Of a DNA stretch of 32,167 bases, positions 3,018 to 27,605 are shown in pieces. The stretch covers positions 1-32,167 of the forward strand of contig CAZEBE010000001.1 of assembly GCA_964510275.1 (NCBI GenBank), given 5' to 3'. The notes beneath the pieces were generated by a model. The model was not told the DNA's origin and ran no database searches. It was given only the letters and a program-made list of their open reading frames with translations. The DNA is from an uncultured Gammaproteobacteria bacterium. GTDB lineage: Bacteria; Patescibacteriota; Patescibacteriia; Patescibacteriales; UBA12465. The first letter of the stretch is position 1, and every line of letters begins with the position of its first letter. Both the position numbers and the translations under genes were made by a program.

Positions 3018-3023
3018 CCAATT

Positions 3024-3809: not shown

Positions 3810-3813
3810 ATAA

Positions 3814-5763: not shown

Positions 5764-5769
5764 ATTAGA

Positions 5770-5778: not shown

Positions 5779-5785
5779 CAGATTA

Positions 5786-9054: not shown

Positions 9055-9060
9055 AAACTA

Positions 9061-9100
9061 AAAAAGACTTACTAAATTTTTTACTAGTAAGTCTTTTTTT
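9061..9100. terminator. Bidirectional rho-independent terminator (clpP / surface operon)
   Basis: Perfect 14-bp stem AAAAAGACTTACTA (9061-9074) / TAGTAAGTCTTTTT (9085-9098) with a 10-nt loop. A and T runs sit on both sides, between the convergent clpP (stop 9054) and the 336-aa gene (stop 9113). Confidence 0.75.
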
Positions 9101-10333: not shown

Positions 10334-11110
10334 CTAATTTACAGCATCAATTAACTTACCGGTTCCTAGTGGATTATAACCTCCTTTAACCTCTGAGCCA
10401 TCATCATAACTATCGCCATCGGTATCAATTTTATTAGGATCGGTTCTATAAATTTTTACTTCATCATAATCAGGTAGAGTATCATCGTCAGTATCAACTT
10501 TACCTGGGTTGGTATTGTAAATTTTTACTTCATCAGCATCGGACAATCCGTCACCATCAGTATCGGTCATGATAACATTTGTTCCTAAAACATTTTCTTC
10601 TTCATCAGTTAAACCATCGCCATCGGTATCAACTAAATTACTTACCGGAGGGGTAGTTGTTGCCAAAGGAGTTGAAGTTACGACCGTTATTTCTTGGCTA
10701 ACAGGAATAACTGGTTCTACCGGCTCTGTGACAGTCACCACCGCTTCTTGGTTGGTTGTAACAACAGCCGTTGTCTTAGTTTCAATTACTTCAGCTGGAG
10801 CCTGGTTAGCAATAAATTTGATGTAAACTAGATAACCCAAACTAGCTAACAAAATTATAAATAAAATTATTAAACCAATTTTTAAAATTTTACTCTTAGA
10901 GGGACTAGCTGCGCCATCACTAGCCGACAAACCAGCTTTTTGAGTTTCAATTTCCGTGGGAGCTGGCGAGCTAACAGAATTAGCTGGGCTTTGATTGTAA
11001 TAGCCGGAAAAACTTTTAGCCTCCGTCACCGGCTTATCAGTTTCAGCAAAAATGTCGTCAACCGACGGTGTTGTTGGAGCTGATTGATTTGCTTGTAAAT
11101 CATTAAACAT
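10334..11110 (-). CDS. Single-pass membrane protein with four TSP3-like Ca-binding repeats
   Basis: 258 aa. A low-complexity tail of about 75 aa is followed by a TM helix (ILKIGLIILFIILLASLGYLVYIKFI) and a T/V/P-rich linker. Four repeats of 22-23 aa of the form DTDGDGLxDxxE...P..(V/I) occupy aa 161-251. Confidence 0.8.
   Translation of the reverse strand: MFNDLQANQSAPTTPSVDDIFAETDKPVTEAKSFSGYYNQSPANSVSSPAPTEIETQKAGLSASDGAASPSKSKILKIGLIILFIILLASLGYLVYIKFIANQAPAEVIETKTTAVVTTNQEAVVTVTEPVEPVIPVSQEITVVTSTPLATTTPPVSNLVDTDGDGLTDEEENVLGTNVIMTDTDGDGLSDADEVKIYNTNPGKVDTDDDTLPDYDEVKIYRTDPNKIDTDGDSYDDGSEVKGGYNPLGTGKLIDAVN
10358..10630 (-). repeat. Coding tandem repeat: 4 x ~23-aa thrombospondin-type-3-like (DxDxDGxxDxxE) units
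   Basis: The four units are DTDGDGLTDEEENVLGTNVIMT, DTDGDGLSDADEVKIYNTNPGKV, DTDDDTLPDYDEVKIYRTDPNKI and DTDGDSYDDGSEVKGGYNPLGTG. Confidence 0.8.
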
Positions 11111-11120
11111 AAATTTTTAT

Positions 11121-11390
11121 TTATTTTTTTATACGATAAATATATATACCATTTTTTTCATTAACCACTTCCGCCTCCTGAGAAGGACTGATTAAAAGTT
11201 TTATTTTTTCTTCTTCTGTCATTTCTCGGGCAGTATTTATTTCTGATATTACTTCTGATTCGTCATCATTGCTTAAAGGTTTAGTTGTCGAATCGTTTTT
11301 CAAACTAACAAAAACAATGATAAAAATAATAATTATCAAAACAATTGAAAGGGCGATGATAATTTTTTTTCTATTACTTAATTGTATCAT
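11121..11390 (-). CDS. Small N-terminally anchored membrane protein (89 aa), hypothetical
   Basis: N-terminal TM helix (KIIIALSIVLIIIIFIIVFVSL) followed by an acidic tail of about 60 aa. It lies 27 nt after the 1048-aa gene and 10 nt before the next gene. Confidence 0.55.
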   Translation of the reverse strand: MIQLSNRKKIIIALSIVLIIIIFIIVFVSLKNDSTTKPLSNDDESEVISEINTAREMTEEEKIKLLISPSQEAEVVNEKNGIYIYRIKK

Positions 11391-11417: not shown

Positions 11418-14400
11418 CTACTTAAATATTTCTGCCGTTGAAAAAGAGTAGCGACAATAGATGGTTTTAGCATCTTCAACACCGCTTGTTTCATTGGCGG
11501 CCCAAATTTGATTATATGGTAAAGAATTACCCCTTACCGGCCCCTTGTTACCCAAAGACTGAGCCGTTGGCCAAGCATCATCATTATAATCGTTTAAATT
11601 CCAACCTGTTAAATTTATATAATTCTTTTCTTCAGTACAACGCCAATTATTTGTTGAGTCTGTATTCATTGAAAATGTTTTAGAACCTGTTTTATTCTTA
11701 CAACCATAAACATTTAAAGTGGCCGACAAACCGTGTAAATTATTAGAAGCTCCAGGATCATCATCAGCTTGAATAGCAAAGACGTTAACGCCCTTTTGCA
11801 AAGTAACATTAAATTTTTGAATTTTAGTCCAGTCATGCCCACTAGCAACCTCAACCTCATTAAAATAGGTTAAATGCTTATTGTCAGCAGACACTTGAAC
11901 ATCAGCCCCTGATAAACAGCAGGAACCGTTGACGCACTCTTCATCTTCAGAACAGTCACCACAAGAGCCACCGCAACCATCATCACCGCAAATATTAACC
12001 TCACAACTAGGAACACAAACACAAGCACCACAATCAGAGCTGCAATTTTTACAAGTTTCCATCTCCACTAAAGAACCCTGAGGATTTATAATTTTATTTT
12101 GACAATAACCATCGCCACAATAACCACCACCTTCAACAGCTGATTTAAAGACACAGCTATTACTATTTAAAATAGGATAAGGCGATTTAACGTTTAAACC
12201 AGTAGTACAAGCATACTGTATAGCTGGATTTGTAGAAACTGCTGTAGTTGAAGCCCAAACACCATCGGCACCATCACAAGATTCCATTCCGTTATTATAA
12301 AGTCCGCCCTGCCCTTCAGAATTTGGTATCTGTTTCACGCCATCACCACAAAAAGTATTAACCTTTAAAGCAAAACTTTTTTCAGTGAGCGATCCATATT
12401 CATTAGCAACCGTTATTTTAACAATTGAACTAGTAGCAATCGACCCCTTAATAGTGTCTGCTTTTAAATAAACATCTTCGGCTGATGAACTTTTATCAAC
12501 ATAAAGATTGTTAATACTACTTACAGAATAAGACAAATTATAATTACCACTTTTCTGCTTACCCAAGAAACAGGAATTTCCAGAAATTGGATAAGAAGCT
12601 CCCAGGCGAGCCGTTGTATCACATTGAAAATCCAACAAAGGCTTCTCCATTTTTATGGTTATATTTACCATCACTGAAGAAGTAATATTGTCAGCGGTGG
12701 CGGTAATGAGCAAAGGAATAACAACATCTTGTTTTATTTCTACAGAGTCAGGAATTCTAAAAGAAAAATCAATCTTGCTTTTGTTCAAGCCAACCGAAGT
12801 TTCTGTTGCTTTTGCTACCGCTTCTTTTATTAAAGAAGAAAAATTAGAATTAGAAGAGGTAACTTTAAAAGATGGTTTTGAATTACTACCCTCAACAATA
12901 AAACTATATTTTAACGGAATAATTGGATCAACAAAATAAGTAATATCTTCAGCTTCTATACGAGGTTTGCCCGCTTCACTGATATTTAAAGTTAATTTGG
13001 TGGTTGTCGCTGCCCCACGACTATCAGTTAAAACCAAGTTCATATCATACAAACCCGGCTTTCCAGCCTTAGGAGCATAAATTCTTTTTTGATTAGGATC
13101 GCCAGTATCTTGTAAAACCGGGATTAAGCTATTACCATATCGCCAATCACCGCTAATCCAAGGAGCGGTAGATAAAGCATTTAAACTCCAAGAAACAAGA
13201 TCACCCTCAGCGTCTTTAATTTTTACATAACCGTTAAATTCTTTGCCAGATTCGCCGCCAGTATAAGAACTTTCTACATAAGGAGCTGTATTAGAATTAT
13301 AACCAGCACTGTTATTTACCGAGCACATATGGGTACTAATTTTTTCATCCGCAGTATCATAACCCAGAAGACCAGTTTCAAAAACAGAACAAAGTGAGTA
13401 ATTAACCCCGTTTTTAGTAGCGGTGTAATTAAAAGCATAACTTCCAGCCGGTAACGACAGGTTAGAATTTACAAAAGATTTAGTTTTATCATTCCAGCAA
13501 GTAACTGGATCATGTCCGCTGCAAAAACCCAAAGAGTTAATCGGGTCGAGTAAAGTTTGTCCTAAACCAAGTTGAGGAGTTAAGGTTTCTTTCCAGCTAG
13601 GCCAGACCGATAAACTACTACCCAAAATATAAGTCCCGAATTGTAAACTAGGATAAGTACCATTTGCTTGTTTAAAATTTTCAATTGCTTTACCAAATTG
13701 ATTTAATTTTCCTAGACGATTAACATCGCGAGTTACTCGAGCTTTCAAACTGTCACAAAATAAATTTAAAGGACAATCACTATCAATTAAACAAGCTTTA
13801 ATGGTTGATGGTTGGCACTTGGTGTTAGAACAAGTATAATCTTTTGGGCAATCAGAGTCTGTCTGACAATTTAGTTTAGAAATAGAACAACGACCAGATT
13901 CAGTGAGATTGTTGTTAAATTTCCAATGAGAAACTAATTGTCCCAGAATATCCAGAGTCTTTTCCTCTGATTCTTGATTGTAAGAAATTAAATAAACATT
14001 GGTATATATTTTGGTAGAATTATTTCTAACTGAACATTGACCACTCCACTCTTTTCCACCTTCTACCCAACGGCACTTGTTCGCATTAACCATTGTCGAG
14101 CATTTTGAAGTAGAACAATATGGAGTATTTCCCGTACCATAAGAAATTGCACCAAAAAACTCTTCGGCATAAGTATTGGGATTTAAAAATAAATCTAAAT
14201 TACAATTAACCGCACCTGTTATTTTATCAACGGCTATTTTTACTTTACATTCCCGTCCTAAGGCGGCATCTGACAAGCTAAGTGGTTTATACCAATTACC
14301 CGAATCAATATTAGCCGCGTTTACAAAAACCGTTCGCCCATCGCGAATTGCTTCATAGCCGTCCACAATTAAACTTTGTGGTGAGCCTTTATACCCCTGA

Positions 14401-14564
14401 TTAGTATACCAAGTTTCAATATTATCATGATGAACATTAGGCAAAATACGAACAGCAATCGCGTCTGATTGACTGGCCGCTTCAACTTGATTTAAAAGAG
14501 CAAAAACAGCGCCAACTATTATCAGGGTGCTAATTTTTTTCCAATTAGTGGTTGTAACACGCAT
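11418..14564 (-). CDS. Giant secreted Cys-rich multidomain protein (1048 aa) with pilin-headgroup-like, Ig-like, CGDG Cys-repeat and jelly-roll lectin-like regions
   Basis: Sec-type signal peptide (MRVTTTNWKKISTLIIVGAVFALLNQVEA|AS) with no other TM helix. I count about 42 Cys by hand. Domain-like regions are listed under findings. Confidence 0.85.
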   Translation of the reverse strand: MRVTTTNWKKISTLIIVGAVFALLNQVEAASQSDAIAVRILPNVHHDNIETWYTNQGYKGSPQSLIVDGYEAIRDGRTVFVNAANIDSGNWYKPLSLSDAALGRECKVKIAVDKITGAVNCNLDLFLNPNTYAEEFFGAISYGTGNTPYCSTSKCSTMVNANKCRWVEGGKEWSGQCSVRNNSTKIYTNVYLISYNQESEEKTLDILGQLVSHWKFNNNLTESGRCSISKLNCQTDSDCPKDYTCSNTKCQPSTIKACLIDSDCPLNLFCDSLKARVTRDVNRLGKLNQFGKAIENFKQANGTYPSLQFGTYILGSSLSVWPSWKETLTPQLGLGQTLLDPINSLGFCSGHDPVTCWNDKTKSFVNSNLSLPAGSYAFNYTATKNGVNYSLCSVFETGLLGYDTADEKISTHMCSVNNSAGYNSNTAPYVESSYTGGESGKEFNGYVKIKDAEGDLVSWSLNALSTAPWISGDWRYGNSLIPVLQDTGDPNQKRIYAPKAGKPGLYDMNLVLTDSRGAATTTKLTLNISEAGKPRIEAEDITYFVDPIIPLKYSFIVEGSNSKPSFKVTSSNSNFSSLIKEAVAKATETSVGLNKSKIDFSFRIPDSVEIKQDVVIPLLITATADNITSSVMVNITIKMEKPLLDFQCDTTARLGASYPISGNSCFLGKQKSGNYNLSYSVSSINNLYVDKSSSAEDVYLKADTIKGSIATSSIVKITVANEYGSLTEKSFALKVNTFCGDGVKQIPNSEGQGGLYNNGMESCDGADGVWASTTAVSTNPAIQYACTTGLNVKSPYPILNSNSCVFKSAVEGGGYCGDGYCQNKIINPQGSLVEMETCKNCSSDCGACVCVPSCEVNICGDDGCGGSCGDCSEDEECVNGSCCLSGADVQVSADNKHLTYFNEVEVASGHDWTKIQKFNVTLQKGVNVFAIQADDDPGASNNLHGLSATLNVYGCKNKTGSKTFSMNTDSTNNWRCTEEKNYINLTGWNLNDYNDDAWPTAQSLGNKGPVRGNSLPYNQIWAANETSGVEDAKTIYCRYSFSTAEIFK
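13371..13742 (-). other. Type IV pilin / pseudopilin headgroup-like domain inside the 1048-aa protein (aa ~275-398)
   Basis: ARVTRDVNRLGKLNQFGKAIENFKQANGTYPS ... LLDPINS ... YAFNYTATKNGVNYSLCSVFE follows the pilin pattern RD..R..dL..i..Ale.y....G.YP ... l.DP.N ... Y.Y......y.L.a.lE. It lacks the class III signal peptide and the hydrophobic alpha1-N helix. Confidence 0.5.
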
Positions 14565-14606: not shown

Positions 14607-17600
14607 TTACTCCTGCAAAACAGCGGCTGTAATAGTAGTAGAAGCTTCATCCGAGGTTTCACTAATATTTCCACTCTCATCAATCGCCGCTAAATAAAAA
14701 TAATGTTTACCAACGCGATAATCACTTTGGTTAAAAGTTAAGCTAGTGGCTTTATTTGGAGAATCAACTGAATCAGAGGCTCTTTTTCCGTCTAAAAATC
14801 CGTGAAATAAACGATAATAAAGAGCGTCATCAGTGTTAGCTTTCCATTTTATAGCTAAAGTACTGCTTGTTGTTTCAATACTTAAACCCGTTGGTTTTGC
14901 TGGAGCGATAGTGTCCGTTGGGGTAATTTCGGCCCCGCCAGACAAAGGACTTTCGGCTTTTTTATTAGTCAAGGATGAAACTTTAAAATAATATTTTTTA
15001 TCTTTAATTAAACTGGTTATCTTTAAAGAACAGTTATACTTATCAAGAGATTTAGAACAAACCGCCGAATCATTAACTGAAACCGGAATAATTTCCGAAC
15101 CAGCCTGACCGCCGCTTAATCCATAGTAAATTTTAAATGATTCTAAAGTTGTTGGGTTTACAATTGGAGCATACCAGCTTAAAAGTACTGAATCGCCAGT
15201 GCCGGTGTTTCTTACTTCAATGATTTCTCCTGATTGAGGAATTGCTTCTCGGAAAAAATAGGATTCTTTAAGAACATTCCAAATACAAGTACCACCAATT
15301 CCACAAACAGCCCCCTGTTCGCTACAAGGATTGCCTGAATTACTACAAACCAAATTTCCTGAAGAACCTAAAATTAAAGCTGGGTCAGCCACTGCTGGTA
15401 AATCGTCGACTGTTCCTTTGTTTCCCGCGTCACGACAATAATAAAATTTATAATTATAATTTATACAACCAGAAATAGCATTACCTAAACTATCGACACA
15501 CTTGTCAGACCAGGGACTCCATTTTCCATTTGTTACCATTGGCCAAGGGTTGGCACAAAGAAACACGTAAGCATTGGAGGTACCGCTAAGACCATTACCA
15601 CGGAAACTAAAATTACTAAAGCCAGACATGTTAACCGAAGCAGTTATTTTTGTGCTCTTATCAGTAACACCAGAAACCGCACCGACTACAATTTCATTAT
15701 TTTTTAAACCAGAAATATTCATTTTATCAACAACCGAAGAGTCGTCTATTTTAAAGTTCCAATTCCAGCCATAGCCAGAAACTGGTTGTATTAATTGGCC
15801 ATCAGCACTATAAGCCCAGGCCGAAACGGCTCGGTCACTATCAGCTTTTGTATCAAATAATTTACTATTAGCAACATCATCGGTGACGTCGTTGTCGGCT
15901 GTATTAATTAAGAAAGAATCTGGCTCCAAAACAACATCATCTAAAACACAAACACCACCACCTTCACTCTCAACGGCTAAAGTTGTAAAACCAAACGTAT
16001 AAGAATTTTTAAATTTAATGCCGTTAAATTCTGGGTTGGTAATATGACCAAATATGGTCGAACCGTTCATTCCAACTTTTTTAAGGCTGGTTACCCCATA
16101 ATTACTATCTAAATTTTCATCACCCTTTACAACTACAAAATAATTGGTTTGAGCATCTAATAATTTTTGAGGACTAAGATAAATTATTGTTGAAGTAGCC
16201 TTATTTGTATAACCAGTTTTTGTTTCAGTTGTTGCTGGCAACACACAATATAGTTTATCCGCTGAAGGAGTGGCGGCAATTGCATTATTATTTACCGAGC
16301 CACTAAATAAATACTTAAAGTTATTTAGTATTGTTTGATATACTCTAGCGATAAAATTAATTTTCTTTGGTCTGAAATCATTTAGAGACAGCGTTGTTCC
16401 ATCAGGACAAACATCGGTGTTATAAGTTTTTTCTTCTAACAGTAAAATATTGGAAGATAGCGTAGCAAGATTCATCTCTTGATCAAACTTAATCTTAATC
16501 TGTGCGTTACGACAAACTTTCTGGGCATTATTTTTAGGGTCAGTAGAAACAACCTTTGGTCTTCCGTAACAACAGGTATCATCACCGCAGCCTTGACCAC
16601 CACCACATTGAGAATCTAAAGAGCAGCCACAGAATAAACCACGGCCATTTCCAGAACAACTTCCTTTATCTTTTAGACAAGTTAAATCTCCGTTTTTTTC
16701 ACCTGGTTTACAACAGCAAAAACCACAATCTTTCAGATCTGGACCTTCTCCCTTATCAGACAAACAACTATAAGGGTTTCCACAAAGACTAGTATTACAA
16801 ATAGTAGCTTCATCGGAAGCACAACTACTATTAGGTGAAACATCTAAAGAGCCACATTGATTTTGACAATTATTAAAGCCAATGATTTGTCCAGTGGTGC
16901 TAGCGACATTTCCGCACTCTTTAGTGTCCTGATCACAATTATAATAAGCACAATATTTTACTCCTTCCAAATTAAACTTCTCTGTTCCATCAGTACACTT
17001 ATCATTTTTTTCATCATAACAACAATTATTTTGAGCGGAGCATTTGGTTTTGTCTTTACCAATTAAATCACAGATTGTTTTAGAATTAGCTGCACAGTCT
17101 GTAACACAGGTAGAGGTGGCTAAAAATTGTCCAGTAGAGGTAGCTGTCTGATTACAAATAGCTTTATTACCAGCATCACAATCATAATAGGCACATTTTC
17201 CGTTAAGTAAATTACCATTACCTCCCTGACAAACTCCTTTAGCCTCGTCAAAACAACATTGATTTTTATGGTCGCCACAACTAGTTTCATCTAAAGCAGC
17301 ACAATCAACACAAACACCACCCGATTTAGAGGTGTCACAAATTTTTCCACTAGTGGTGTCGCAGTTACAAGCAGCATCATGATCTGCTTGAGTAGTACCA
17401 ACCGCTGAACAACCAGAACAAGAACCATAGCCAGAACCATCATTGGAAGTGTCGCTACCACAAGTACCAGCACATTTAAGCGGTGCACAACAATCTCTAG
17501 CGTCCTTACCAATTTCACAACAACATTCACAAGTGTCTTTTGGTGCCTCTAAACAAGAAAATTTATTTCCATTTTTCCCGCAAGAAGCGTTGCCACCACA

Positions 17601-20600
17601 AATCTTTTTTGATTCACAGATACCATAATCATCATTAGAGTTGGAATCTTCATTACAAGCAAACTCAGGTGCACAAGGATCACATAAAACTGGAATTCTA
17701 TCAACACAATAACCACTGCCGATATTTATATAATTATTCGGACAAGAAGTGTTTACTTTAAGCTGTTTAACAAAATAAGTTTTGCCACTGGTTTTATCAT
17801 CATAAGCACGACAACTGGTAACTCCTTTGTAATTAATAACTACATCTTTGTTATCAATTTTAGAAGTCAAAGAATAAGAAACTTCTTTTTCTAAAATGCA
17901 TTTTTTAGTCTGACAAACATCTTTAGTTGCATTATAAGTACAATTCTTATCATCTTCTTTACAATACCCTAAAGCTCCACAGGCCGAAGTAGCGCTGCCG
18001 CAATCAGCCGTAATTCTTGGGGAAACAGCATTAAAAGGTGAACATTTTCCTGGAGAGTTTGGACAAAATTGACCAGTCTGACAACCATTATAAAAAGTTG
18101 CCATTGCTAAACAGCTATCAAATTTATTATCCGAATTGCCGGATAAAATAGTATTAAATTTAGATTCATAAACTGAATTAGGAACATCAAAATAGCAAGA
18201 TAATAAAGACGCAGCGCAAGAACCGGTTTTATAAGTATTGTTTGGACAGCAAACAGGACTAGAAGCCGAACAATCGGAATTGTTAATACATTTACCAACG
18301 ATAAAGTTGACTTCGTTTCCTGATTCTCCACTCTTCATAACCCTAACTGGACCAGTTATAGCTGAAACGCCATCACTGTTTACCGGCACAACGGTTTCTA
18401 GTTTATCAGCTAAATCGTCTTTAGTTATCTTTGAAGAAGTGCTGATTTCTCGATTAAAAACAACTGAAGCATAACTATCAGCCTTACCAAAATATTCCCC
18501 CCATAAAGTAACTTTATCACCAACTTGTCCACGGACAGGATCGATTTTACAAATACTAGTTTTTAAATTTTGCGTTGGATCAAATTTAAAATTATTATTT
18601 GGAAAAAGTAAATCTGTGTTTATAACAACCTCTCCTAAATTAACTTTAATTTTATAATTTTTATTAACTAATCCTTCTGGGACTTTAACAATAATCTGAC
18701 TGTCGCTCCAAGCGGAATTAGTACAAACTTCCGGAAAATCATAGGAAGCTTCTTTGTCGTCAAACAACACTTGACGACTACCACGAGCACTGCCAAAACC
18801 TTTGCCGGAAATAGTAACATACTGCCCAGTGTTTCCCGATGTGGGATAAAAAGAAGAAATGTAAGGGCCTGCTTCAGCTTCCCTTTCTTTTACAAACATC
18901 AAAGAATTACTTTTTTGATTGATACCAGCTAAAGATCTTTCTACAAAAGTTGTCGTTCTTCCAGGGATAATACTAGGAGCCAAAGTTTGCCCTGATAAAT
19001 TGTCAGTTGAAAAAACAGAATCAATTCCTTTGTAAGGATTATTATATTCTCCAAAGTAAGCAGTGCTATTTCTTAGATTAACCCCCTGATAACCAACTTT
19101 ATCCCCTAAAGCTCCTTTAGTAGGGTCAATCAAACAAAGACCGGGACGATAAATTTCGTTCTTAACAAAATCAGCTACTTTAGGGCCACTATCATTATTA
19201 GTGGTGTCAAAATTTTCTTCAAAATTACCCTCACGTTTAACCTTTATCGGTCCGGTGGCTGCCCCACTAGGAACCGCTACCGTTATTTGACGATCAGTCC
19301 AAGAACTAACACAATTAGCATTTAAAAGTTTGGGGAAATTAGCTAGCTGAGACTGTGACTCATTCGCCCCTAAAAAAGTAACTTGTCCGGTATTTAAAAC
19401 TTTAGTAACTGTAAAATCATCAATATACAAATCTGTTCCGGTTTTGGTGGAATTATAACCAACAGACAAACCAAGTTCAATCATTTTTTGTCCACTAGCA
19501 TTAAGCCACGTGTCCATTTCTGGAGTATATTTAAAAGTATAAGAATACAAAGTCCAATCAGAAGTTGAGCTGATTGGTATTGAGGTTAAATTAAGAGCTC
19601 CATAACATTTCTTTTGATAAGGGGTGTTCATGCAACAAGTATTTGCCTGTTCGGAACAAGTTTTTCCCATACCGCAAGGATCTACTCCAGCAGCAGGGGT
19701 TGGGACTACTTTTGAGCCATCCCAAGTATAACCAGATTTTAAAGCAGCATAATAGTTATAAGCCACACACTGAGAACCCCAACCTAAATTAGAAGCAATT
19801 TGAACAGCAACATTAGCCGTTGTTTTTCCTTTATAGTAGAACTGAATAGAATAGGTTTCACCAATTTTAAAGTTAAGCGGTGCTAAATTATAGGTCAATT
19901 TAGCCCACATTACATTGTGAGAATTTCCCCAAACTAAAATTTCACCTTGTCTGTAAACAGCAGGGCCGCTTCGGTGAGCATCGTCTGTTCCTGAAAAATT
20001 ACAAGTGTTATCAGTCGCTTTCCAGGTACAATTACTTAAATCATCACAAGTCGCTTTATTACAAATACCTGGATAATCTTGATTGGCGTCTTGATGAATT
20101 CTAACGCTCTGCTTCCCTGATCTAAATTCATTTTGAACAATGCCAACACTAGAGTGTTTTTGTGAGGCAATTGTCCAATCGGTTGGCACTTTACCAATAG
20201 CCCCTCTTTCAAAATCAATATTTGTTAAGAAACTTTCAAAAACACTAGAGCTAGTTCCAAAATTATAACCGTAAATGGTTATTAGATTATTAGCACCACC
20301 GTTTGGTGTTGCGGTATCACACTTAGCACCACCTAAACAATCAGAGTCTAAATTACAACCACGGTTTTTATCATTAGCACAAAAACCTCCAGCCGGGCTA
20401 ATGCCAGTAATAACTGGAGCGCCAACACAAGTGCAGGAATCTGGATTACATTTTAAATAAGGTCCACACAAATTATTATCAACAGAACATTTTCCTCCAT
20501 CAGGATTAGCGTTACAAGATTCTCCTAAACTAGATTTTGGTTTACACAAACAACTATTTTCGTCACAAGTATAATCATCACCGCATAAATCATTGTCAGC

Positions 20601-21140
20601 CTGACATTTAGCAACAACCGTGTCACCATCACAACTTGTTTTCTCATCAACATCTGGCAAACAAGTTGAACCTAAGCAGGGGCCCCAAGTATCAACGTTA
20701 CAAGTTTTAGCACCACCACAACCACAGGAAATACTAGCACCATTAGTACAGCTGTTAGAGCTTGGATCCCCGCCAGTAACACCCAAAACTTTATTGATAA
20801 CAAAATAAACAACCCCCCAAGCTGACAAAATTATAAGCAAACCAATTACACCGTTTTTTATAATTTTTTTAGCTTGATCGATTTTATCTTCGCTACCACC
20901 AGAGGTCATATATACAAAACCGCCCCATAAAATTAAACAGACTGCTAACAAGCCCAAAAAACCCATTAAAAGGTTAATGATATTTTTAATTATCGTAACT
21001 GGACTATTAGCCCCCAAATTCAAAGGATTACTACTGGCCGAATCAATACCCGTGTCTACAGCCAAAGACTGAGAAGCAAACAAAAAGACCGATCCAATAA
21101 TTAAAGTTAAGATTAAAAAACCTTTGAGTTTATTAGACAT
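14607..21140 (-). CDS. Giant (2177 aa) membrane-anchored Cys-rich adhesin-like protein with N-terminal VirB2/TrbC-like pilin hairpin
   Basis: An uninterrupted 6.5-kb ORF in an AT-rich genome. In order it contains a signal peptide (...FASQSLA|VD), a two-helix hairpin module and six-Cys knots. Next come four IPT/TIG-like domains (PVITGISPAGG..., PGLCLIDPTKG..., GPYISSFYPTSGNTGQYVTISGKGFG..., ICKIDPVRGQVGDKVTLWGEYFG...) and a Cys-rich region of about 580 aa. It ends with Big_5/SbsA-Ig-like (PKVVSTDPKNNAQKV...IKIKFDQEMN), Big_2-like and two fn3-like domains (aa ~1967-2165). I count about 127 Cys by hand. Confidence 0.9.
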   Translation of the reverse strand: MSNKLKGFLILTLIIGSVFLFASQSLAVDTGIDSASSNPLNLGANSPVTIIKNIINLLMGFLGLLAVCLILWGGFVYMTSGGSEDKIDQAKKIIKNGVIGLLIILSAWGVVYFVINKVLGVTGGDPSSNSCTNGASISCGCGGAKTCNVDTWGPCLGSTCLPDVDEKTSCDGDTVVAKCQADNDLCGDDYTCDENSCLCKPKSSLGESCNANPDGGKCSVDNNLCGPYLKCNPDSCTCVGAPVITGISPAGGFCANDKNRGCNLDSDCLGGAKCDTATPNGGANNLITIYGYNFGTSSSVFESFLTNIDFERGAIGKVPTDWTIASQKHSSVGIVQNEFRSGKQSVRIHQDANQDYPGICNKATCDDLSNCTWKATDNTCNFSGTDDAHRSGPAVYRQGEILVWGNSHNVMWAKLTYNLAPLNFKIGETYSIQFYYKGKTTANVAVQIASNLGWGSQCVAYNYYAALKSGYTWDGSKVVPTPAAGVDPCGMGKTCSEQANTCCMNTPYQKKCYGALNLTSIPISSTSDWTLYSYTFKYTPEMDTWLNASGQKMIELGLSVGYNSTKTGTDLYIDDFTVTKVLNTGQVTFLGANESQSQLANFPKLLNANCVSSWTDRQITVAVPSGAATGPIKVKREGNFEENFDTTNNDSGPKVADFVKNEIYRPGLCLIDPTKGALGDKVGYQGVNLRNSTAYFGEYNNPYKGIDSVFSTDNLSGQTLAPSIIPGRTTTFVERSLAGINQKSNSLMFVKEREAEAGPYISSFYPTSGNTGQYVTISGKGFGSARGSRQVLFDDKEASYDFPEVCTNSAWSDSQIIVKVPEGLVNKNYKIKVNLGEVVINTDLLFPNNNFKFDPTQNLKTSICKIDPVRGQVGDKVTLWGEYFGKADSYASVVFNREISTSSKITKDDLADKLETVVPVNSDGVSAITGPVRVMKSGESGNEVNFIVGKCINNSDCSASSPVCCPNNTYKTGSCAASLLSCYFDVPNSVYESKFNTILSGNSDNKFDSCLAMATFYNGCQTGQFCPNSPGKCSPFNAVSPRITADCGSATSACGALGYCKEDDKNCTYNATKDVCQTKKCILEKEVSYSLTSKIDNKDVVINYKGVTSCRAYDDKTSGKTYFVKQLKVNTSCPNNYINIGSGYCVDRIPVLCDPCAPEFACNEDSNSNDDYGICESKKICGGNASCGKNGNKFSCLEAPKDTCECCCEIGKDARDCCAPLKCAGTCGSDTSNDGSGYGSCSGCSAVGTTQADHDAACNCDTTSGKICDTSKSGGVCVDCAALDETSCGDHKNQCCFDEAKGVCQGGNGNLLNGKCAYYDCDAGNKAICNQTATSTGQFLATSTCVTDCAANSKTICDLIGKDKTKCSAQNNCCYDEKNDKCTDGTEKFNLEGVKYCAYYNCDQDTKECGNVASTTGQIIGFNNCQNQCGSLDVSPNSSCASDEATICNTSLCGNPYSCLSDKGEGPDLKDCGFCCCKPGEKNGDLTCLKDKGSCSGNGRGLFCGCSLDSQCGGGQGCGDDTCCYGRPKVVSTDPKNNAQKVCRNAQIKIKFDQEMNLATLSSNILLLEEKTYNTDVCPDGTTLSLNDFRPKKINFIARVYQTILNNFKYLFSGSVNNNAIAATPSADKLYCVLPATTETKTGYTNKATSTIIYLSPQKLLDAQTNYFVVVKGDENLDSNYGVTSLKKVGMNGSTIFGHITNPEFNGIKFKNSYTFGFTTLAVESEGGGVCVLDDVVLEPDSFLINTADNDVTDDVANSKLFDTKADSDRAVSAWAYSADGQLIQPVSGYGWNWNFKIDDSSVVDKMNISGLKNNEIVVGAVSGVTDKSTKITASVNMSGFSNFSFRGNGLSGTSNAYVFLCANPWPMVTNGKWSPWSDKCVDSLGNAISGCINYNYKFYYCRDAGNKGTVDDLPAVADPALILGSSGNLVCSNSGNPCSEQGAVCGIGGTCIWNVLKESYFFREAIPQSGEIIEVRNTGTGDSVLLSWYAPIVNPTTLESFKIYYGLSGGQAGSEIIPVSVNDSAVCSKSLDKYNCSLKITSLIKDKKYYFKVSSLTNKKAESPLSGGAEITPTDTIAPAKPTGLSIETTSSTLAIKWKANTDDALYYRLFHGFLDGKRASDSVDSPNKATSLTFNQSDYRVGKHYFYLAAIDESGNISETSDEASTTITAAVLQE
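16854..17279 (-). repeat. Coding tandem duplication: two 81-aa-period Cys modules (CC[FY]DE ... CAYY[DN]CD ... [ST]TGQ ... C-x3-C)
   Basis: Copy 1 is aa 1288-1349: CGDHKNQCCFDEAKGVCQGGNGNLLNGKCAYYDCDAGNKAICNQTATSTGQFLATSTCVTDC. Copy 2 is aa 1367-1429: CSAQNNCCYDEKNDKCTDGTEKFNLEGVKYCAYYNCDQDTKECGNVASTTGQIIGFNNCQNQC. The CAYY Cys residues are at aa 1316 and 1397. Confidence 0.75.
20427..20633 (-). repeat. Coding tandem duplication: two 39-aa six-Cys modules with identical spacing C-x8-C-x6-C-x5-C-x4-C-x-C
   Basis: Module 1 is aa 170-199 (CDGDTVVAKCQADNDLCGDDYTCDENSCLC). Module 2 is aa 209-238 (CNANPDGGKCSVDNNLCGPYLKCNPDSCTC). Confidence 0.75.
20787..21005 (-). other. VirB2/TrbC-like 'T4SS pilin' helical hairpin module of the 2177-aa protein (aa 46-118)
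   Basis: The module reads SPVTIIKNIINLLMGFLGLLAVCLILWGGFVYMTSGGSEDKIDQAKKIIKNGVIGLLIILSAWGVVYFVINKV. Two hydrophobic helices flank a short Lys-rich loop, after a cleavable signal peptide. This fits the GGF.y.TSgG....AK....viG pattern I recall for the Pfam T4SS_pilin family that is abundant in CPR bacteria. Confidence 0.65.
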
Positions 21141-21154
21141 ACTTATATCAAGAA

Positions 21155-23848
21155 TTAATTAACACAATTACCGTCAGAATTTAAGGAATTTGTTCCCGTG
21201 CCAGAACAACAAGAAGGGTTCTCTTCGCTTAAATTAACACAACCAGGACCAATACTAGGTTTAAAACAATTTTGATAAATGTTTTTTACACCAGAACCAA
21301 TTTGAGAAACATAGGTAACTGCTTCAAAAAAATCTGAATGTAAAATTTTAATCGAGGTGTAATCGGGCTCACCATCAGGAGTGCCCTGTTCTTTATTTTC
21401 ACTCTCCATCCAATAACCTAAAGGCTTATCCGTTAAACTGCGCAAATTAACTAATTTATGTTCTACGCTGGTCAAATCATTTTTCATTTCCAAACTACCA
21501 GTCCTTAAAGAGCTATTCATCATCAAATCATTAAAATCAATTATCACCGGACTAGTTAATCTAACACCAACTTCTTTTAGATAAGGCGAAGTTAAAGATA
21601 TCGTCGGTGGTATTAAATTAATCTCGTTACTAACCCAAAAAGAAAATTCAAAACCATCGCGTTTGGTTAAATCATTATCACCTTCAATAAAATAGGGGTA
21701 AACCGCTGTTATTGGGCCTTCCGCTTGATTATCGCGATTACCGTCTAAAGAGTTAAAAGCTAAATCAACAACACCATCTAATTGCAAAGAATTAGCTGCA
21801 GGATAATTCATTCCTTTAGCAACATCGCGACAAACGCCAGCGACACACTCAGAGTAAGGAGCAAGACTACTACAATCAGTCACTGATGAACAAGTTTTTA
21901 ATTTAGCTGCGTTTATTTTGAGAGCTAAATTACTACCAGCTGGTAAACAATACATTTTTTCACCACAACTATTTACTCCACATTCCTTGTCAGAAATAAA
22001 TTCTAAAGTGCGGTAAGCGTTAGTTAAAGAAAATTTACCAGAAACATAATCACCAACACAAACCGTCGCTTCGCAATTATAAGACAAACAATCACTGGCC
22101 GCACTACAAGCTTCTCCGTTTGTTTTAGCGGTTCTACTAGCGTTTACTAAACGAATATAGGATTTGAGTTCATCAGAACTGCCGGACAAAACCATAGGAT
22201 TAACTGCTTCATTAAAAGTAACTTGAACAACTGAATTCATTGGCTTATCCTTCAAGCCTTTTATTTCATAAAGGTCACTCTTGTCAGTTCCACCAGAAAA
22301 TTTAGTAATTGTCAGTCCGTTTCCGGTTGAAGAAATATTTAAACTATTACCCGAAACTCCTGTCTGTTTTGAAAATAAATTTAAGGTGTTGCCGTTACCA
22401 AAAACATTAATATTATAATTACTACTTAAAGCTGCTTTCATGTTAGCAGTCATAAGTTCGCTTGAACAAACAGCGGGAACTAAAATTTCGTTACCCGCAC
22501 CAGATTTAGAGCCAACAAAAATATAAGTATCAGAACCAATGGTTAAAGTTTGAGCAGGCGCTGCAGGCTTAATTCTTACCGTCCAAAGATTTCCTTGATT
22601 TACAACAGCTGGAAGTGTAACTGAAAAATAACCATCAAAATTTGCTACCCCATCAATAATATCACTAGCTCCCAATAAATTATCGCCACTAAACAATTTT
22701 AATTTGCCATTGTCTATCTGAAGTTTAAAGTAAGTAACAGTTCCTGAATAATTAGGATTTATTATTAACTCAATTTTTTCAGAAGTTCCAATCTTAACAA
22801 CACTAATTATACTGGCAGCTGTTTTTATTTTAGGGCAATCAGAAACCACTATTTGTGCTTTAGCCGCTTTAGCTTCAGAGCCAACACTAAAAGTGTCGGC
22901 CAAATTATCTATTGGCGGAAAAATATTTCCTAATAAAACTTGAGGGGGGGTTAAATCCAACTTGTCATTAGTTTCAAAAGTCCATTCTAAAAAATCAGAA
23001 GAACAGGTTTTAAATAAAGCCTCTCCACCAGCTTTTTTTAATTCATTGGTTAAGCGAACCGCATATTCAACATTACCACTAGCACTTCCTAAATAACCAA
23101 CTGGCATTAGAACTAAAGTTTTATTTCCAGCTGGCACTGATACTTCAATGTTAGTAATGTTATCAGCACAACCAGCGGAGACACAGGAGTTGCCATCGGC
23201 TGTTTTATAAACCTGAATATTTGTCGGATTAAGTAAATTACAATTTGGCGTATTGTCGCAAGCACAGGCGTTTTTAGTGTTTCTATTTATACAAACCGTA
23301 TCCAATTGAAAAGCCTCTTTTGAAGTAACTAAGATGCTTGAATTACGAGCCACATCTTTAGTTCCGGGAGCTGGAAAAACAGATTCAATTGAACAAGAAC
23401 CTAAAGTTCCTAAACTTAAATTTTTAAAATTAGCTGTACTAGCCGGCAAAGAAAGGGCTGTTGAATTTTTATCAGTGAAAAGAGATAAGACATAAGAAGA
23501 AATTCCCCAGGCTGATAAAATAATAACCACTCCGATAACCGCATTTTTAAGAACCTGCTTAGCTTTCTTTATTTTATCCTCACTACCACCAGAAGTTGTC
23601 CACAAGAAACCGCCATACATAATAGTAATTACCAAAATAAGACCAAGCAAACTAAAGACCACCTGAATTATTCTTATAATTATAGTGACTGGAGAAGAAG
23701 CGCTTAAAGATAAATTATCTTCTACAACAGCCGTTCCCAAATCAGTGGCTTCAATGGCTAAGCTACTTTTAGCTAGCAAAAAAGTGGCCAAAAATACCAC
23801 AAGAGGTAGGCCAATTTTTTTCAAAAAAGAGGTTGGACATTTTTTCAT
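21155..23848 (-). CDS. Large (897 aa) membrane-anchored Cys-containing surface protein with N-terminal VirB2/TrbC-like pilin hairpin
   Basis: Signal peptide (...LLAKSSLA|IEA), then the hairpin module, then Big_5/SbsA-Ig-like repeats (SIESVFPAPGTKDVARNSSILVTS...LEWTFETN; VVQVTFNEAVNPMVL...; PPTISLTSPYLKEVGVRLTSPVIIDFNDLM) interrupted by C-x5-C-x4..8-C-x4-C knots. I count about 27 Cys by hand. This is the first gene of the operon, 14 nt upstream of the 2177-aa gene. Confidence 0.88.
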   Translation of the reverse strand: MKKCPTSFLKKIGLPLVVFLATFLLAKSSLAIEATDLGTAVVEDNLSLSASSPVTIIIRIIQVVFSLLGLILVITIMYGGFLWTTSGGSEDKIKKAKQVLKNAVIGVVIILSAWGISSYVLSLFTDKNSTALSLPASTANFKNLSLGTLGSCSIESVFPAPGTKDVARNSSILVTSKEAFQLDTVCINRNTKNACACDNTPNCNLLNPTNIQVYKTADGNSCVSAGCADNITNIEVSVPAGNKTLVLMPVGYLGSASGNVEYAVRLTNELKKAGGEALFKTCSSDFLEWTFETNDKLDLTPPQVLLGNIFPPIDNLADTFSVGSEAKAAKAQIVVSDCPKIKTAASIISVVKIGTSEKIELIINPNYSGTVTYFKLQIDNGKLKLFSGDNLLGASDIIDGVANFDGYFSVTLPAVVNQGNLWTVRIKPAAPAQTLTIGSDTYIFVGSKSGAGNEILVPAVCSSELMTANMKAALSSNYNINVFGNGNTLNLFSKQTGVSGNSLNISSTGNGLTITKFSGGTDKSDLYEIKGLKDKPMNSVVQVTFNEAVNPMVLSGSSDELKSYIRLVNASRTAKTNGEACSAASDCLSYNCEATVCVGDYVSGKFSLTNAYRTLEFISDKECGVNSCGEKMYCLPAGSNLALKINAAKLKTCSSVTDCSSLAPYSECVAGVCRDVAKGMNYPAANSLQLDGVVDLAFNSLDGNRDNQAEGPITAVYPYFIEGDNDLTKRDGFEFSFWVSNEINLIPPTISLTSPYLKEVGVRLTSPVIIDFNDLMMNSSLRTGSLEMKNDLTSVEHKLVNLRSLTDKPLGYWMESENKEQGTPDGEPDYTSIKILHSDFFEAVTYVSQIGSGVKNIYQNCFKPSIGPGCVNLSEENPSCCSGTGTNSLNSDGNCVN
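23477..23695 (-). other. VirB2/TrbC-like 'T4SS pilin' helical hairpin module of the 897-aa protein (aa 52-124)
   Basis: The module reads SPVTIIIRIIQVVFSLLGLILVITIMYGGFLWTTSGGSEDKIKKAKQVLKNAVIGVVIILSAWGISSYVLSLF. By hand alignment it is 40/73 identical, without gaps, to the module of the 2177-aa protein. Confidence 0.65.
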
Positions 23849-23873
23849 TTTTTTATAATAATCTTACTTATTA

Positions 23874-23892: not shown

Positions 23893-23916
23893 GAAATTGT
23901 TAAAAAAGAAAAAGAT

Positions 23917-25386
23917 ATGACCATTGATCGTATTGTCAAAAAATTTAAAGAAAACCATCCACAAATTGATGCCGAAATTCTTTGGTTAGCTTTTGATTTT
24001 GCCGATAACGCTCATCGTAATCAAATTAGAAAAAATGGTGAACCATATATCAATCACCCCCTACACACCGCTTACTTACTAACGGAAATGAAAGCTGATT
24101 TAGCTACGGTTACAGCTGGCTTATTACACGATGTTCCCGAGGACACTGAATACACCATCGAAGAAGTAGAAAAAAATTTTGGCAGTGACGTAGCTAATTT
24201 AGTTAGAGGAGTTACAAAATTAGGAAAACTAAAATATCGCGGCATTGAACGTTATCGTGAAAATCTTAAAAAAATGTTTTTGGCAATGACTGGCGACATT
24301 AGAATTGTTTTTATTAAGTTTTGTGACAGACTGCACAATCTTAGAACGCTAGAGTCATTACCAGAAGACAAACGCCGTCGCATTGCCAAAGAAACTTTAG
24401 AAATTTATGCTCCAATCGCTGGAATGCTTGGTATTTGGCGTCTAAAATGGCAAATGGAAGATTTGTGTTTTAAATTTTTATACCCTGAAGAATTTAATAG
24501 CTTAGAGCAAGAATATGAAGTTGAGAAAAAAGCAGAAAGAAATCTATTTTTCCAAAAAGTAAAAAACATTTTAGCGCCACGCCTTGAAGATGCCAAAATC
24601 AATTACGACATCGAAGTTCGTTTTAAACATCTATATAGTATTTGGCAAAAGATGCAAAATAAGAATCGCCGCTTTGATGAAATTTATGATGTGTTTGCCT
24701 TGCGTTTAATTGTTGATGATATAAATGACTGCTATAAAGTATTAGGAATAATTCATACTCTTTGGAAACCTAAACCGAATCGCTTTAAAGATTATATTGC
24801 CGTACCTAAACCAAACGGTTATCAATCATTACATACCACTGTTTTTGGCCCCGAAGGAAAAGCTGTTGAATTTCAAATCAGAACGCTCGAGATGCATGAA
24901 GAATCTGTTTATGGTATCGCCGCTCACTGGTATTACAAAGCTCAAAATAATCGAGAATTTGAAAGGCAACCTAAATGGCTTCAAGAAATTGCTGATGTAC
25001 AAAAAGAAATTACTAACACTTCAGAATTCATCAACAACGTTCAGCTTAATGTTTTTCGTGATCGAATTTTTGTTTTTTCACCACGAGGCGATGTTTTTGA
25101 ATTGCCAGAAGGATCGACTCCAATTGATTTTGCCTATGCGGTTCACAGCAATGTTGGTAATCACGCCTCTGGAGCGATGATTAACGATCGTTTAGGAAAG
25201 CTTGATCAAGAACTTAAAAACGGTGATTTAGTCGAAATTATTCTAGAAAAAAGCCGTCAACACCCCAGCAAAGACTGGCTAAAATTTGCCAAGACCAAAA
25301 GGGCGCGTGACCATATTAAACAGTATGCTAAAAAATCAACACTCGAAAGCATTAAAAGATTTATCCCAGGAATAAACAATAAATAA
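23917..25386 (+). CDS. rel: Bifunctional (p)ppGpp synthetase/hydrolase, short RelA/SpoT homologue (HD + synthetase + TGS only)
   Basis: I moved the start to Met29 of the ORF (MTIDRIVKKF, 489 aa). HD motifs are HRNQIRKNGEPYINHPL and LLHDVPEDT. Synthetase motifs are YSIWQKM, DVFALRLIV, DYIAVPKPNGYQSLHTTV and EFQIRTLEMHE. The TGS motif is IFVFSPRGDVFELPEGSTPIDFAYAVHSNVG. The protein ends about 45 aa after TGS. Confidence 0.92.
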   Translation: MTIDRIVKKFKENHPQIDAEILWLAFDFADNAHRNQIRKNGEPYINHPLHTAYLLTEMKADLATVTAGLLHDVPEDTEYTIEEVEKNFGSDVANLVRGVTKLGKLKYRGIERYRENLKKMFLAMTGDIRIVFIKFCDRLHNLRTLESLPEDKRRRIAKETLEIYAPIAGMLGIWRLKWQMEDLCFKFLYPEEFNSLEQEYEVEKKAERNLFFQKVKNILAPRLEDAKINYDIEVRFKHLYSIWQKMQNKNRRFDEIYDVFALRLIVDDINDCYKVLGIIHTLWKPKPNRFKDYIAVPKPNGYQSLHTTVFGPEGKAVEFQIRTLEMHEESVYGIAAHWYYKAQNNREFERQPKWLQEIADVQKEITNTSEFINNVQLNVFRDRIFVFSPRGDVFELPEGSTPIDFAYAVHSNVGNHASGAMINDRLGKLDQELKNGDLVEIILEKSRQHPSKDWLKFAKTKRARDHIKQYAKKSTLESIKRFIPGINNK

Positions 25387-27037: not shown

Positions 27038-27038
27038 A

Positions 27039-27605
27039 TTAATATTTTGGTAAATTATTTTTTGTAAACACTTTAGCTTTACTAATCGGTAAACCACGCA
27101 GCCAAACGCGTCCAGTGATAAAACTCTTATTAACCGCTCCAAAAAAACGAGAATCCTGAGAAGCATCACGATTATCTCCTAAAACAAAGTACTCATCCGC
27201 TTTTAAATCAACCTTGTTTTCATTATTAGCCTCTGTTACCTCATTGGTATCCAAATAAGGTTCATTTAAAACAAAACCGTCTGGATGTTCAGTGTTGTAT
27301 ACATAAACATGATTATTCTTAATTTGTACACTTTCACCAGGTAAACCAATTATCCTCTTGATAAAATGCTCCTGTGGGTCTCGTGGATAACGAAAAACCA
27401 CCACTTCCCCTCTTTGCGGAACATTAAACCGATAATTAAGTTCATCAATAATCAAATATTCAAAATTATGAAAATTAGGTTCCATTGATGTCCCCTTTAC
27501 GTAAAAGGGTTGAATTAAAAAATAGCGAACCGGAACAATAATTACCAAAGCAATGGCCGCTAATTTAATTAACTCTCGCAAAAATAAAAAAATCTTCTTA
27601 AACAT
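27039..27605 (-). CDS. lepB: Signal peptidase I
   Basis: 188 aa with an N-terminal TM helix. It has the catalytic Ser box VKGTSMEPNF, the Lys box FIKRIIGLPGES and VLGDNRDASQDSRFFG. Confidence 0.92.
   Translation of the reverse strand: MFKKIFLFLRELIKLAAIALVIIVPVRYFLIQPFYVKGTSMEPNFHNFEYLIIDELNYRFNVPQRGEVVVFRYPRDPQEHFIKRIIGLPGESVQIKNNHVYVYNTEHPDGFVLNEPYLDTNEVTEANNENKVDLKADEYFVLGDNRDASQDSRFFGAVNKSFITGRVWLRGLPISKAKVFTKNNLPKY

Follow-up and report, generated by a model that had tools for sequence, protein, structure and literature searches.

T4SS_pilin-family hairpins at the N-termini of two giant, conserved ectodomain proteins of Patescibacteria

Two neighbouring genes of an uncultured, ultra-small Patescibacterium of the Falkowbacteria-like kind encode giant proteins that begin with the membrane hairpin of a conjugative-pilin family. 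They lie in the stretch of DNA analysed here, referred to below as the window, which spans 32,167 bp (positions 1 to 32,167, the full length of contig CAZEBE010000001.1, assembly GCA_964510275.1, GTDB lineage UBA12465 of Patescibacteriota), has 35% G+C and is coding nearly all on the minus strand. The two proteins, L900 (897 residues) and L2000 (2177 residues), each consist of a signal peptide, a hairpin of the type IV secretion system (T4SS) pilin family PF18895 (T4SS_pilin) and a large ectodomain, and their genes are the first two of a co-directional block of seven open reading frames (ORFs) located between ClpP and RelA, with gaps of -8 to 42 nt (Table 1). On balance, we favour the reading that a pilin-derived carrier hairpin presents giant immunoglobulin (Ig)-like ectodomains at the cell surface and that the two proteins belong to a conserved surface operon of seven genes.

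Both proteins begin with a T4SS_pilin hairpin

The initial annotation, made from the sequence alone, had described a 73-residue module in each protein, located as in Table 1 and followed by diverging sequences. We reproduced both the positions of the modules and their gapless identity of 40 of 73 residues. The identity of the window pair (55% in amino acids, 61% in nucleotides) is below the average for related loci. BLASTP similarity between the proteins is confined to the N-terminal 114 residues (E = 2e-25), and nothing significant is found downstream of them.

The T4SS_pilin profile PF18895 matches both modules over positions 3-71 of its 71, with scores of 49-56 bits, about twice the curated gathering cut-off of 26.6. 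At the level of profiles, this bears out the attribution of the N-termini to T4SS pilins proposed earlier. The same proposal extended to the TrbC/VirB2 family; the window modules themselves do not reach the Pfam profile of that family, PF04956, at E <= 0.1. PF04956 is matched by 48 of 91 close small relatives of the hairpin, with a best E of 5e-7. A third profile, NCBIfam NF045849, built for the 'pilin-like conjugal transfer protein' of Mycoplasma integrative and conjugative elements (ICEs), aligns with the two modules over positions 6-79 of 80 (E = 4e-7 and 2e-9), at 29.7 and 37.3 bits against a cut-off of 40 bits. In hhalign comparisons the family profile falls in register with mature Agrobacterium VirB2 (P = 3.6e-4; VirB2 sequence confirmed with PDB 8cue/8exh): the DP motif preceding helix 1 is aligned to TDPATM of VirB2, and the VirB2 loop is 8 residues shorter. 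No alignment was obtained with F-pilin TraA. Free pilins have the same hydrophilic motifs as the modules, namely DP before helix 1 and the TSGGSE(D/E)K..AK loop, and the loop pattern TSGG.E..K..AK is common to the window modules and the 91 relatives. Judged by these sequence comparisons, the membership of the hairpins in PF18895 is established, and homology of the hairpin family to canonical VirB2 is supported indirectly.

Comparison of structures cannot decide pilin membership, since the Foldseek matches are non-specific helical hairpins. The best pilin found in the PDB with a model of the N-terminal 130 residues is the Aeropyrum conjugation pilus 8dfu, at rank 4 with E = 2.4; its TM-score of 0.61 is normalised to the target, no match reaches E <= 0.001, and helical hairpins are not discriminating in such searches. 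A profile of the module alignment yields 0 matches among PDB sequences at E <= 10.

Within their family L900 and L2000 are atypical members, being large and not linked to a T4SS: the small PF18895 proteins end at a median of 6 residues after the module, while the window proteins extend to 897 and 2177 residues. The initial annotation had noted the lack of T4SS machinery nearby, and the Pfam scan agrees, with no VirB4, VirD4, VirB6 or relaxase family in the ORFs scanned, which take in all the large ones of the window. A six-frame scan of the window with a hidden Markov model (HMM) of the module reveals no third hairpin copy besides those of L900 and L2000.

Signal peptides and membrane topology

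The hydrophobic leaders of both proteins end in S-L-A, at residues 29-31 of L900 and 25-27 of L2000, and Ala31 of L900 is conserved in at least 90% of 75 orthologues. Hydropathy and this conservation agree with the SLA-ending signal peptide recognized earlier on both proteins, after which cleavage would take place. Apart from the leader and the two module helices, neither protein has a hydrophobic segment. The loop between the helices holds 5 Lys/Arg residues in L900 and 4 in L2000, and the mature N-terminal stretch holds 0 and is acidic. An AlphaFold model of the hairpin, based on 91 sequences, places the helices at residues 53-85 and 90-129 with a predicted local distance difference test (pLDDT) score of about 90. 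The full-length model of L900 (75 orthologues, mean pLDDT 85.8) consists of the leader, the hairpin, a disordered linker at residues 126-143 and a confident all-beta ectodomain. From the charge distribution, hydropathy, the AlphaFold model and the Cys-rich, Ig-like nature of the ectodomains we infer that the hairpin lies with both termini outside and the loop inside, which fits the earlier suggestion of a cytoplasmic Lys-rich loop and outward-facing termini. VirB2 and TraA propilins take the same N-out/loop-in/C-out orientation in the membrane.

Other modes of anchoring or export were considered and rejected. Type IV pilins are excluded by the lack of a class III leader, as the prepilin motif G-F/M-x-x-x-E is absent from the first 60 residues of either protein, and the leader is of the signal peptidase I (SPase I) type and is followed by two helices. 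The window does contain a prepilin peptidase gene (3024-3809), of which L900 and L2000 are not substrates by sequence. Sortase-anchored adhesins are likewise excluded: neither protein has an LPXTG motif, the only loose match being IPQSG at the internal residue 1967 of L2000, and neither has a C-terminal hydrophobic segment. No SLH domain was found by Pfam in L900 or L2000.

The fusion is conserved across Patescibacterial genomes

A search with the 897-aa ectodomain protein recovers at least 120 clusters at 35-72% identity, mostly of about 840-930 residues and nearly all combining PF18895 with Big_5. Their source names are 'pilin', 'Type IV secretion system pilin' and 'Ig-like domain-containing protein', and most belong to Candidatus Falkowbacteria, which the Table S1 of a published survey places in the GTDB class ABY1 (PMC12102498). 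With tblastn against one genome per GTDB species, we found 522 relatives, the best 80 of them of full length; since one scan pattern out of three falls within the hairpin, some of the 522 may match the module only. Among 84 loci examined, 74 contain the tandem pair, in which a gene of about 900 residues is directly followed by a hairpin-bearing ORF of 1500-2400 residues. The length of L900 is nearly invariant across loci (856-930 aa), and its alignment includes 57 invariant columns, many of them Cys. The occurrence of the same architecture in at least 120 clusters and in 84 loci from different assemblies indicates a genuine fusion and speaks against an artefact of assembly or gene calling.

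The surroundings of the pair are conserved as well. By BLAST, RelA is a neighbour in 74 of the 84 loci, a small ORF resembling ribosomal protein S21 in 67, histidyl-tRNA synthetase (HisRS) in 62, signal peptidase I in 60 and the 1048-aa protein of the block, p1048, in 52. The TSP3-repeat proteins are likewise recurrent neighbours. The gene order (RelA, HisRS, signal peptidase I) is kept even at the most distant orthologue inspected, with 35% identity.

Constraint on the hairpin and concerted evolution

Across 113 orthologues, the frequency of the majority residue is 0.71 in the module and 0.74 in its loop, compared with 0.57 in the ectodomain and 0.41 in the signal peptide. Fused modules and small pilins are 44-47% identical, and small pilins are 45% identical among themselves. 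Judging from these sequence comparisons, the hairpin appears to be under pilin-like constraint and does not look like an inert anchor. Such constraint suggests that it probably still docks with the partners of free pilins, be they other hairpins, lipid or the assembly machinery.

The hairpins of the two proteins also evolve in concert. In the 73 loci that contain both genes, identity between the L900 and L2000 hairpins is 68% within a genome, as opposed to 57% across genomes, and the observed value was reached in 0 of 10,000 permutations. The similarity within a genome also exceeds the average similarity of orthologues, and it argues, like the comparisons above, for pilin-like constraint, although part of this signal is gene conversion. 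The share of identical synonymous codons between them is 0.505, where 0.40 is expected, and this excess indicates that gene conversion has recurred between the two adjacent genes at their 5' ends.

Cargo diversity of the module and polypilins

We examined whether the combination of the hairpin with a large ectodomain is limited to this pair. A phmmer search with the first 130 residues of L2000 returns 34,852 representative proteins at E <= 1e-3, and the architectures given here are those of the top 150. Single-module proteins comprise 22 shorter than 200 aa, 6 of 200-500 aa, 4 of 500-800 aa, 20 of 800-1100 aa, 2 of 1100-1600 aa, 22 of 1600-2800 aa and 6 longer than 2800 aa (up to 4654); the remaining 68 proteins have 2-8 hairpins per polypeptide. 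Single-module proteins over 500 aa thus make up 54 of the top 150. The module is N-terminal in all long proteins, its envelope starting at residue 20-62. Several of the largest hairpin proteins share just 5-28% of the ectodomain with L2000, indicating that the hairpin carries different cargoes. The list of module relatives from the profile search consists of short proteins only and is unsuited to estimating the frequency of fusion. The initial annotation had regarded a fusion of a pilin fold to a giant ectodomain as unusual; this is true of the literature, but not of the databases, where the pair is deeply conserved and long single-module proteins make up over a third of the top 150 matches.

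The multi-hairpin proteins, which we call polypilins, begin with a single signal peptide, after which 2-8 PF18895 hairpins are arranged in tandem, with linkers of 2-28 aa and no internal leaders. Examples are P0241 (552 aa, 6 modules), P0250 (820 aa, 8 modules) and P0246 (239 aa, 2 modules), in addition to 65 others, and every hairpin retains the loop motif. This layout implies polytopic membrane proteins of 4-16 helices or covalently pre-linked pilin units. No description of polypilins was found in the literature searched.

Smaller hairpin proteins occur in other genomic settings. One locus, L074, carries a third module-bearing ORF (3951-4691, minus strand, 246 aa), located about 5 kb upstream of the pair and on the other strand, which indicates that shorter hairpin proteins and the giant pair co-exist in one genome. 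On two unrelated contigs, arrays of 6-11 small PF18895 genes (L085, 5247-14454; L086, 6763-10396) adjoin NTP_transferase and SBP_bac_1 solute-binding-protein genes, with no VirB4 within 10 kb.

Ectodomains and partner proteins

The ectodomains of L900 and L2000 contain even numbers of Cys, and their Pfam domains are Big_5, TIG and fn3. Foldseek matches of the 897-aa model include alpha-2-macroglobulin of E. coli, SbsC, Sap, cadherins, MSCRAMM adhesins and CopC-like domains, with very low global TM-scores (0.06-0.12), and the resemblance is one of generic Ig-domain strings. The L900 ectodomain is predicted to be a chain of Ig-like beta-sandwiches.

The third gene of the block encodes p1048, whose lectin-like region matches PDB entries 6t0q, 6t1d and 6kbj at E about 2e-5, and whose C-terminal region weakly matches positions 169-287 of a Streptomyces alpha-L-rhamnosidase model. 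Its sequence suggests a carbohydrate-binding partner in the operon. The make-up of the block is that of an adhesive or coat-like surface apparatus, and it does not tell the two apart.

Table 1. Positions of the features of the L900/L2000 block and its surroundings in the window
Feature	Residues	Position in window	Strand	Description
L900 gene	1-897	21155..23848	-	Signal peptide, PF18895 hairpin, flexible linker, all-beta Ig-like ectodomain; 897 aa
L900 signal peptide	1-31	23756..23848	-	...SSLA/IEAT; SPase I type; from hydropathy
L900 hairpin	52-124	23477..23695	-	T4SS_pilin (PF18895), Pfam E = 4e-14; helix, TSGGSEDKIKKAK loop, helix
L900 linker	about 125-143	23420..23476	-	Low-confidence (disordered); pLDDT <50 for 126-143
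L900 ectodomain	144-897	21158..23419	-	Beta-sandwich chain, 26 Cys, Big_5 match, conserved Cys-rich C-terminus
L2000 gene	1-2177	14607..21140	-	Signal peptide, PF18895 hairpin, Cys-rich ectodomain with TIG, Big_5, fn3; 2177 aa
L2000 signal peptide	1-27	21060..21140	-	...SQSLA/VDTG; from hydropathy
L2000 hairpin	46-118	20787..21005	-	T4SS_pilin (PF18895), Pfam E = 5e-15
L2000 ectodomain	119-2177	14610..20786	-	126 Cys
p1048 gene	1-1048	11418..14564	-	Secreted Cys-rich protein; signal peptide only, without hairpin; co-operonic
p1048 lectin-like region	880-1005	11550-11927	-	
89-aa protein		11121..11390	-	Single-pass membrane protein of the operon; small gene at equivalent position in locus L001
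258-aa protein		10334..11110	-	Membrane protein with bacterial TSP3 (Ca-binding) repeats; conserved downstream neighbour
336-aa protein		9113..10123	-	Membrane protein with TSP3 repeat; last gene of co-directional block
Promoter-like site		23912..23939	-	TTGACA-16-TATCTT upstream of L900; consensus scan match only; candidate operon start
Terminator-like site		9060..9099	-	Strong 16-bp hairpin and T-run directly after last block gene; candidate operon end
Signal peptidase I		27039..27605	-	Conserved neighbour

Relation to known pilins and surface proteins

The closest counterparts of the window modules are the small pilins of Patescibacteria. An array of such pilins is essential in the T4SS locus of Southlakia epibionticum (Wang 2023, PMC10633639), and VirB2-like pilin arrays have been surveyed across the phylum (Quinonero-Coronel 2025, PMC12102498). 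They share with L900 and L2000 the Pfam family, the leader-hairpin layout, the TSGG(S/N)E(E/D)K loop and the phylum, and their identity to the fused modules was given above. The small pilins differ in having 115-200 residues, ending about 6 residues past helix 2 and forming arrays of 2-11 genes that are often close to virB4, whereas L900 and L2000 have 770-2060 extra, predicted extracellular residues and form one fixed pair away from T4SS genes. Proteins of the L900/L2000 type are not discussed in either publication. According to the phylum survey, 'no adhesins such as PrgB were detected' in Patescibacteria, and pilin length and fusions are left undiscussed there (PMC12102498).

The TrbC/VirB2/TraA pilins (PF04956), including those of the T-pilus (8cue/8exh) and F-pilus, resemble the window proteins in the long SPase-I leader, the two-helix hairpin, the basic loop and, by prediction for L900 and L2000, the N-out/C-out orientation. 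The loop of L900 and L2000 is about 8 residues longer than that of VirB2, F TraA gives no match, and adjacent T4SS genes are lacking. A cyclisation like that of TrbC is impossible for L900 and L2000 because of the C-terminal fusion. We know of no canonical VirB2 with a large ectodomain. A prior description of large ectodomains joined to VirB2 or PF18895 was not found in the literature searched, which is not proof of absence. The pilin-like proteins of mycoplasma ICEs, Mbov_0395 and ICE_MMCAP2_0565 (NF045849), are comparable in their 80-position hairpin model, which matches both window modules, and in serving conjugation of a wall-less monoderm; they differ in being small and ICE-encoded, and the window scores fall below the model cut-off.

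A similar design is known from a different class of pili. In modular type IV pilins, among them PilB and PilC from Streptococcus sanguinis, CofB, TcpB and ComZ, a small N-terminal pilin carrier is joined by a short linker to a bulky effector module that is to be displayed on the cell or on a filament (Raynaud et al. 2021, PNAS, PMC8179133). This design is widespread and frequent in Candidate Phyla Radiation (CPR) phyla, including Falkowbacteria (PMC8179133). The superfamily and the machinery are unrelated to those of L900 and L2000: type IV pilins (N-terminal module IPR012902) have a class III leader, which a prepilin peptidase cuts, and only one N-terminal hydrophobic helix, alpha-1N. At the level of folds, the large surface proteins with tandem Ig-like domains, such as PrgB, MSCRAMM adhesins and surface-layer (S-layer) Ig-chain proteins, resemble the window pair, but these are anchored by LPXTG/sortase or by SLH domains, while the anchor of L900 and L2000 is an N-terminal pilin hairpin.

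Possible roles of the hairpin fusion

We lean towards describing L900 and L2000 as 'modular VirB2-type pilins', in which a carrier hairpin of the PF18895/TrbC-VirB2 superfamily is joined by a linker of about 18 residues to a large extracellular effector. The proteins would be exported through Sec and cleaved by signal peptidase I after S-L-A. The hairpin would insert into the membrane with the mature N-terminus and the C-terminus outside and the Lys-rich loop, TSGGSE(D/E)K, on the cytoplasmic side, as charge, hydropathy and the AlphaFold model suggest, and about 750 (L900) or 2060 (L2000) disulfide-rich residues of Ig-like, TIG, Big_5 and fn3 character would be held at the cell surface. L900, L2000, the lectin-bearing p1048 and the two TSP3 Ca-binding membrane proteins would together constitute one conserved surface apparatus of Falkowbacteria-like Patescibacteria. 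To judge from the predicted folds, this apparatus most likely serves attachment to a host cell or particle. The neighbouring signal peptidase I may be the enzyme that removes the leaders, and its linkage is perhaps coincidental.

Several points weigh against this description. The adhesive function of the ectodomains is derived from fold classes only, and the Foldseek match of the hairpin to solved pilins is not significant. Nowhere in the 84 loci, searched over 10 kb with the module HMM and homologues of the window proteins, is the pair found beside VirB4, VirB6 or pilin arrays, and no T4SS genes occur in the flanks of L001-L004, the four loci for which Pfam annotation was seen. The conservation of the loop could reflect the needs of membrane insertion instead of partner docking, and the similarity of hairpins within a genome is at least partly due to gene conversion, which makes a functional interaction unnecessary. 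A VirB2-type pilus has not been seen in Patescibacteria; a FEMS review refers only to a 'potential to elaborate conjugative pili', and monoderm T4SSs with pilins are regarded there as exceptional.

The hairpins might, more tentatively, be incorporated into filaments. The Patescibacterial T4SS (VirB4/TrsD/VirB6) would in this case polymerise them together with small PF18895 pilins, and the giant ectodomain would be situated at the tip or sparsely along the pilus. The fused modules are indistinguishable from free pilins in conservation and identity. In VirB2/TraA pili, as known from the F- and T-pilus structures, both termini are on the outer surface, and a C-terminal fusion is geometrically allowed given this arrangement. 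In a monoderm, the ectodomain would have no outer-membrane channel to cross. The modular type IV pilins such as PilB set a precedent in an unrelated pilin class, and incorporation would supply the adhesin that surveys of Patescibacteria did not find. At least one genome encodes both components: Falkowbacteria GW2011_GWF2_43_32 (GCA_000999715.1) carries an L900 orthologue (locus L031), and elsewhere in the genome VirB4, TrsD and coupling proteins, with one VirB2 row (gene 711) among the entries of the phylum survey for this genome (PMC12102498); from those entries, gene 711 could not be mapped to L900. On the other hand, genomic linkage to T4SS genes or pilin arrays is lacking in the loci inspected, and the housekeeping neighbourhood, single copy per locus and stable length of L900 look like those of a structural component, not of an accessory one. 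A pilin of about 70 residues that bears a 2000-aa ectodomain cannot be a major subunit, and no VirB2 pilus has been observed in CPR bacteria.

If filament incorporation were true, Patescibacteria would build VirB2-type (T4SS) filaments or membrane assemblies with a covalently fused giant adhesin at the host-contacting end. Such 'modular conjugative pilins', a proposal we regard as possible but doubtful, would be a class undescribed for any T4SS. The L900/L2000 pair and its relatives of up to 4654 aa would then be the missing adhesin and host-specificity determinants of this T4SS, which the epibiotic lifestyle requires, and the polypilins, with their 2-8 covalently linked hairpins, would be part of that assembly system as well. 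Few systems have been shown to be essential when a cultivated Patescibacterium grows as an epibiont, and the T4SS with its VirB2-like pilins is one of them (PMC10633639). A hairpin with an ectodomain of 800-4600 Ig-like, lectin-associated residues is a concrete candidate for host contact, and it carries the 'modular pilin' principle over from type IV pili into the conjugative-pilin fold, which is unrelated to them. If it were a mere anchor, the hairpin would still be a previously undescribed, phylum-typical tether for giant surface proteins. There is a risk for annotation, too, as such giants are at present named 'pilin' or counted as VirB2 homologues on the basis of 70 residues.

It is unlikely that L900, L2000 and p1048 are instead the main proteins of an S-layer-like coat, whose lattice the hairpin merely tethers, and thus a matter of envelope architecture, not of host recognition. 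Two S-layer proteins, SbsC (E = 4e-5) and Sap (E = 7e-5), are indeed among the top Foldseek matches, and the distribution of the pair would suit a structural component: at least 80 species-level genomes have one pair per locus at a fixed position by housekeeping genes (here also cell-division and Sec genes), with the near-invariant L900 length and invariant Cys-rich columns described above. The low global TM-scores, however, reduce these matches to generic Ig-domain strings, and no S-layer-specific domain was found. The variable length of L2000, and relatives with different ectodomains, are typical of adhesins, and the lectin-like domain of p1048 points to ligand binding.

A chance or convergent resemblance of a generic two-helix membrane hairpin, or long ORFs produced by fusions in assembly or gene calling, is highly improbable: the inability of Foldseek to separate the module from other helical hairpins, the empty PDB profile search and the failure of the window modules to reach PF04956 directly would be in line with it, but it is contradicted by the full-profile PF18895 match at twice the curated cut-off, the hydrophilic motifs common with free pilins, the DP segment in register with VirB2 and the recurrence of the architecture in independent clusters and assemblies.

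Other features of the window and of related records

Many records of the conserved locus have doubtful names. Loci L006, L007, L011, L012 and about 30 more come from records of metagenome-assembled genomes titled 'uncultured Gammaproteobacteria bacterium' despite a clearly Patescibacterial, Falkowbacteria-type locus; one record is titled Bacillota and another Saccharimonadales, and these look like placeholder or wrong names.

The other genes of the window identified by Pfam encode FtsZ, FtsA, a prepilin peptidase, a Wzy_C/TPR protein, SecF, SecD, ClpP, RelA/SpoT, HisRS, signal peptidase I, QueA, RuvB, a DUF218 protein and a helicase-nuclease. The mechanical ORFs of two of them overlap their neighbours. 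The RelA/SpoT ORF (23833-25386, plus strand, 517 aa) has a TTG start that overlaps the start of L900, compared with 488-500 aa in called orthologues, and the HisRS ORF (25646-27169, minus strand, 507 aa) has a GTG start that overlaps signal peptidase I by 131 nt, compared with 446-464 aa. The true starts of both genes are probably further downstream than the mechanical ORF starts. Between RelA and HisRS lies the 80-aa ORF (25420-25662, minus strand) mentioned above, which is kept at about 71% identity in the loci that have it; its match to ribosomal protein S21 is weak (E = 0.004) and below the cut-off. At positions 3024-5799 (minus strand), between FtsA and SecF, the prepilin peptidase (A24) gene is immediately followed by that of a 661-aa Wzy_C/O-antigen-ligase-like TPR protein. 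This arrangement resembles pilin-glycosylation loci and is unrelated to the SPase-I-type L900 and L2000.

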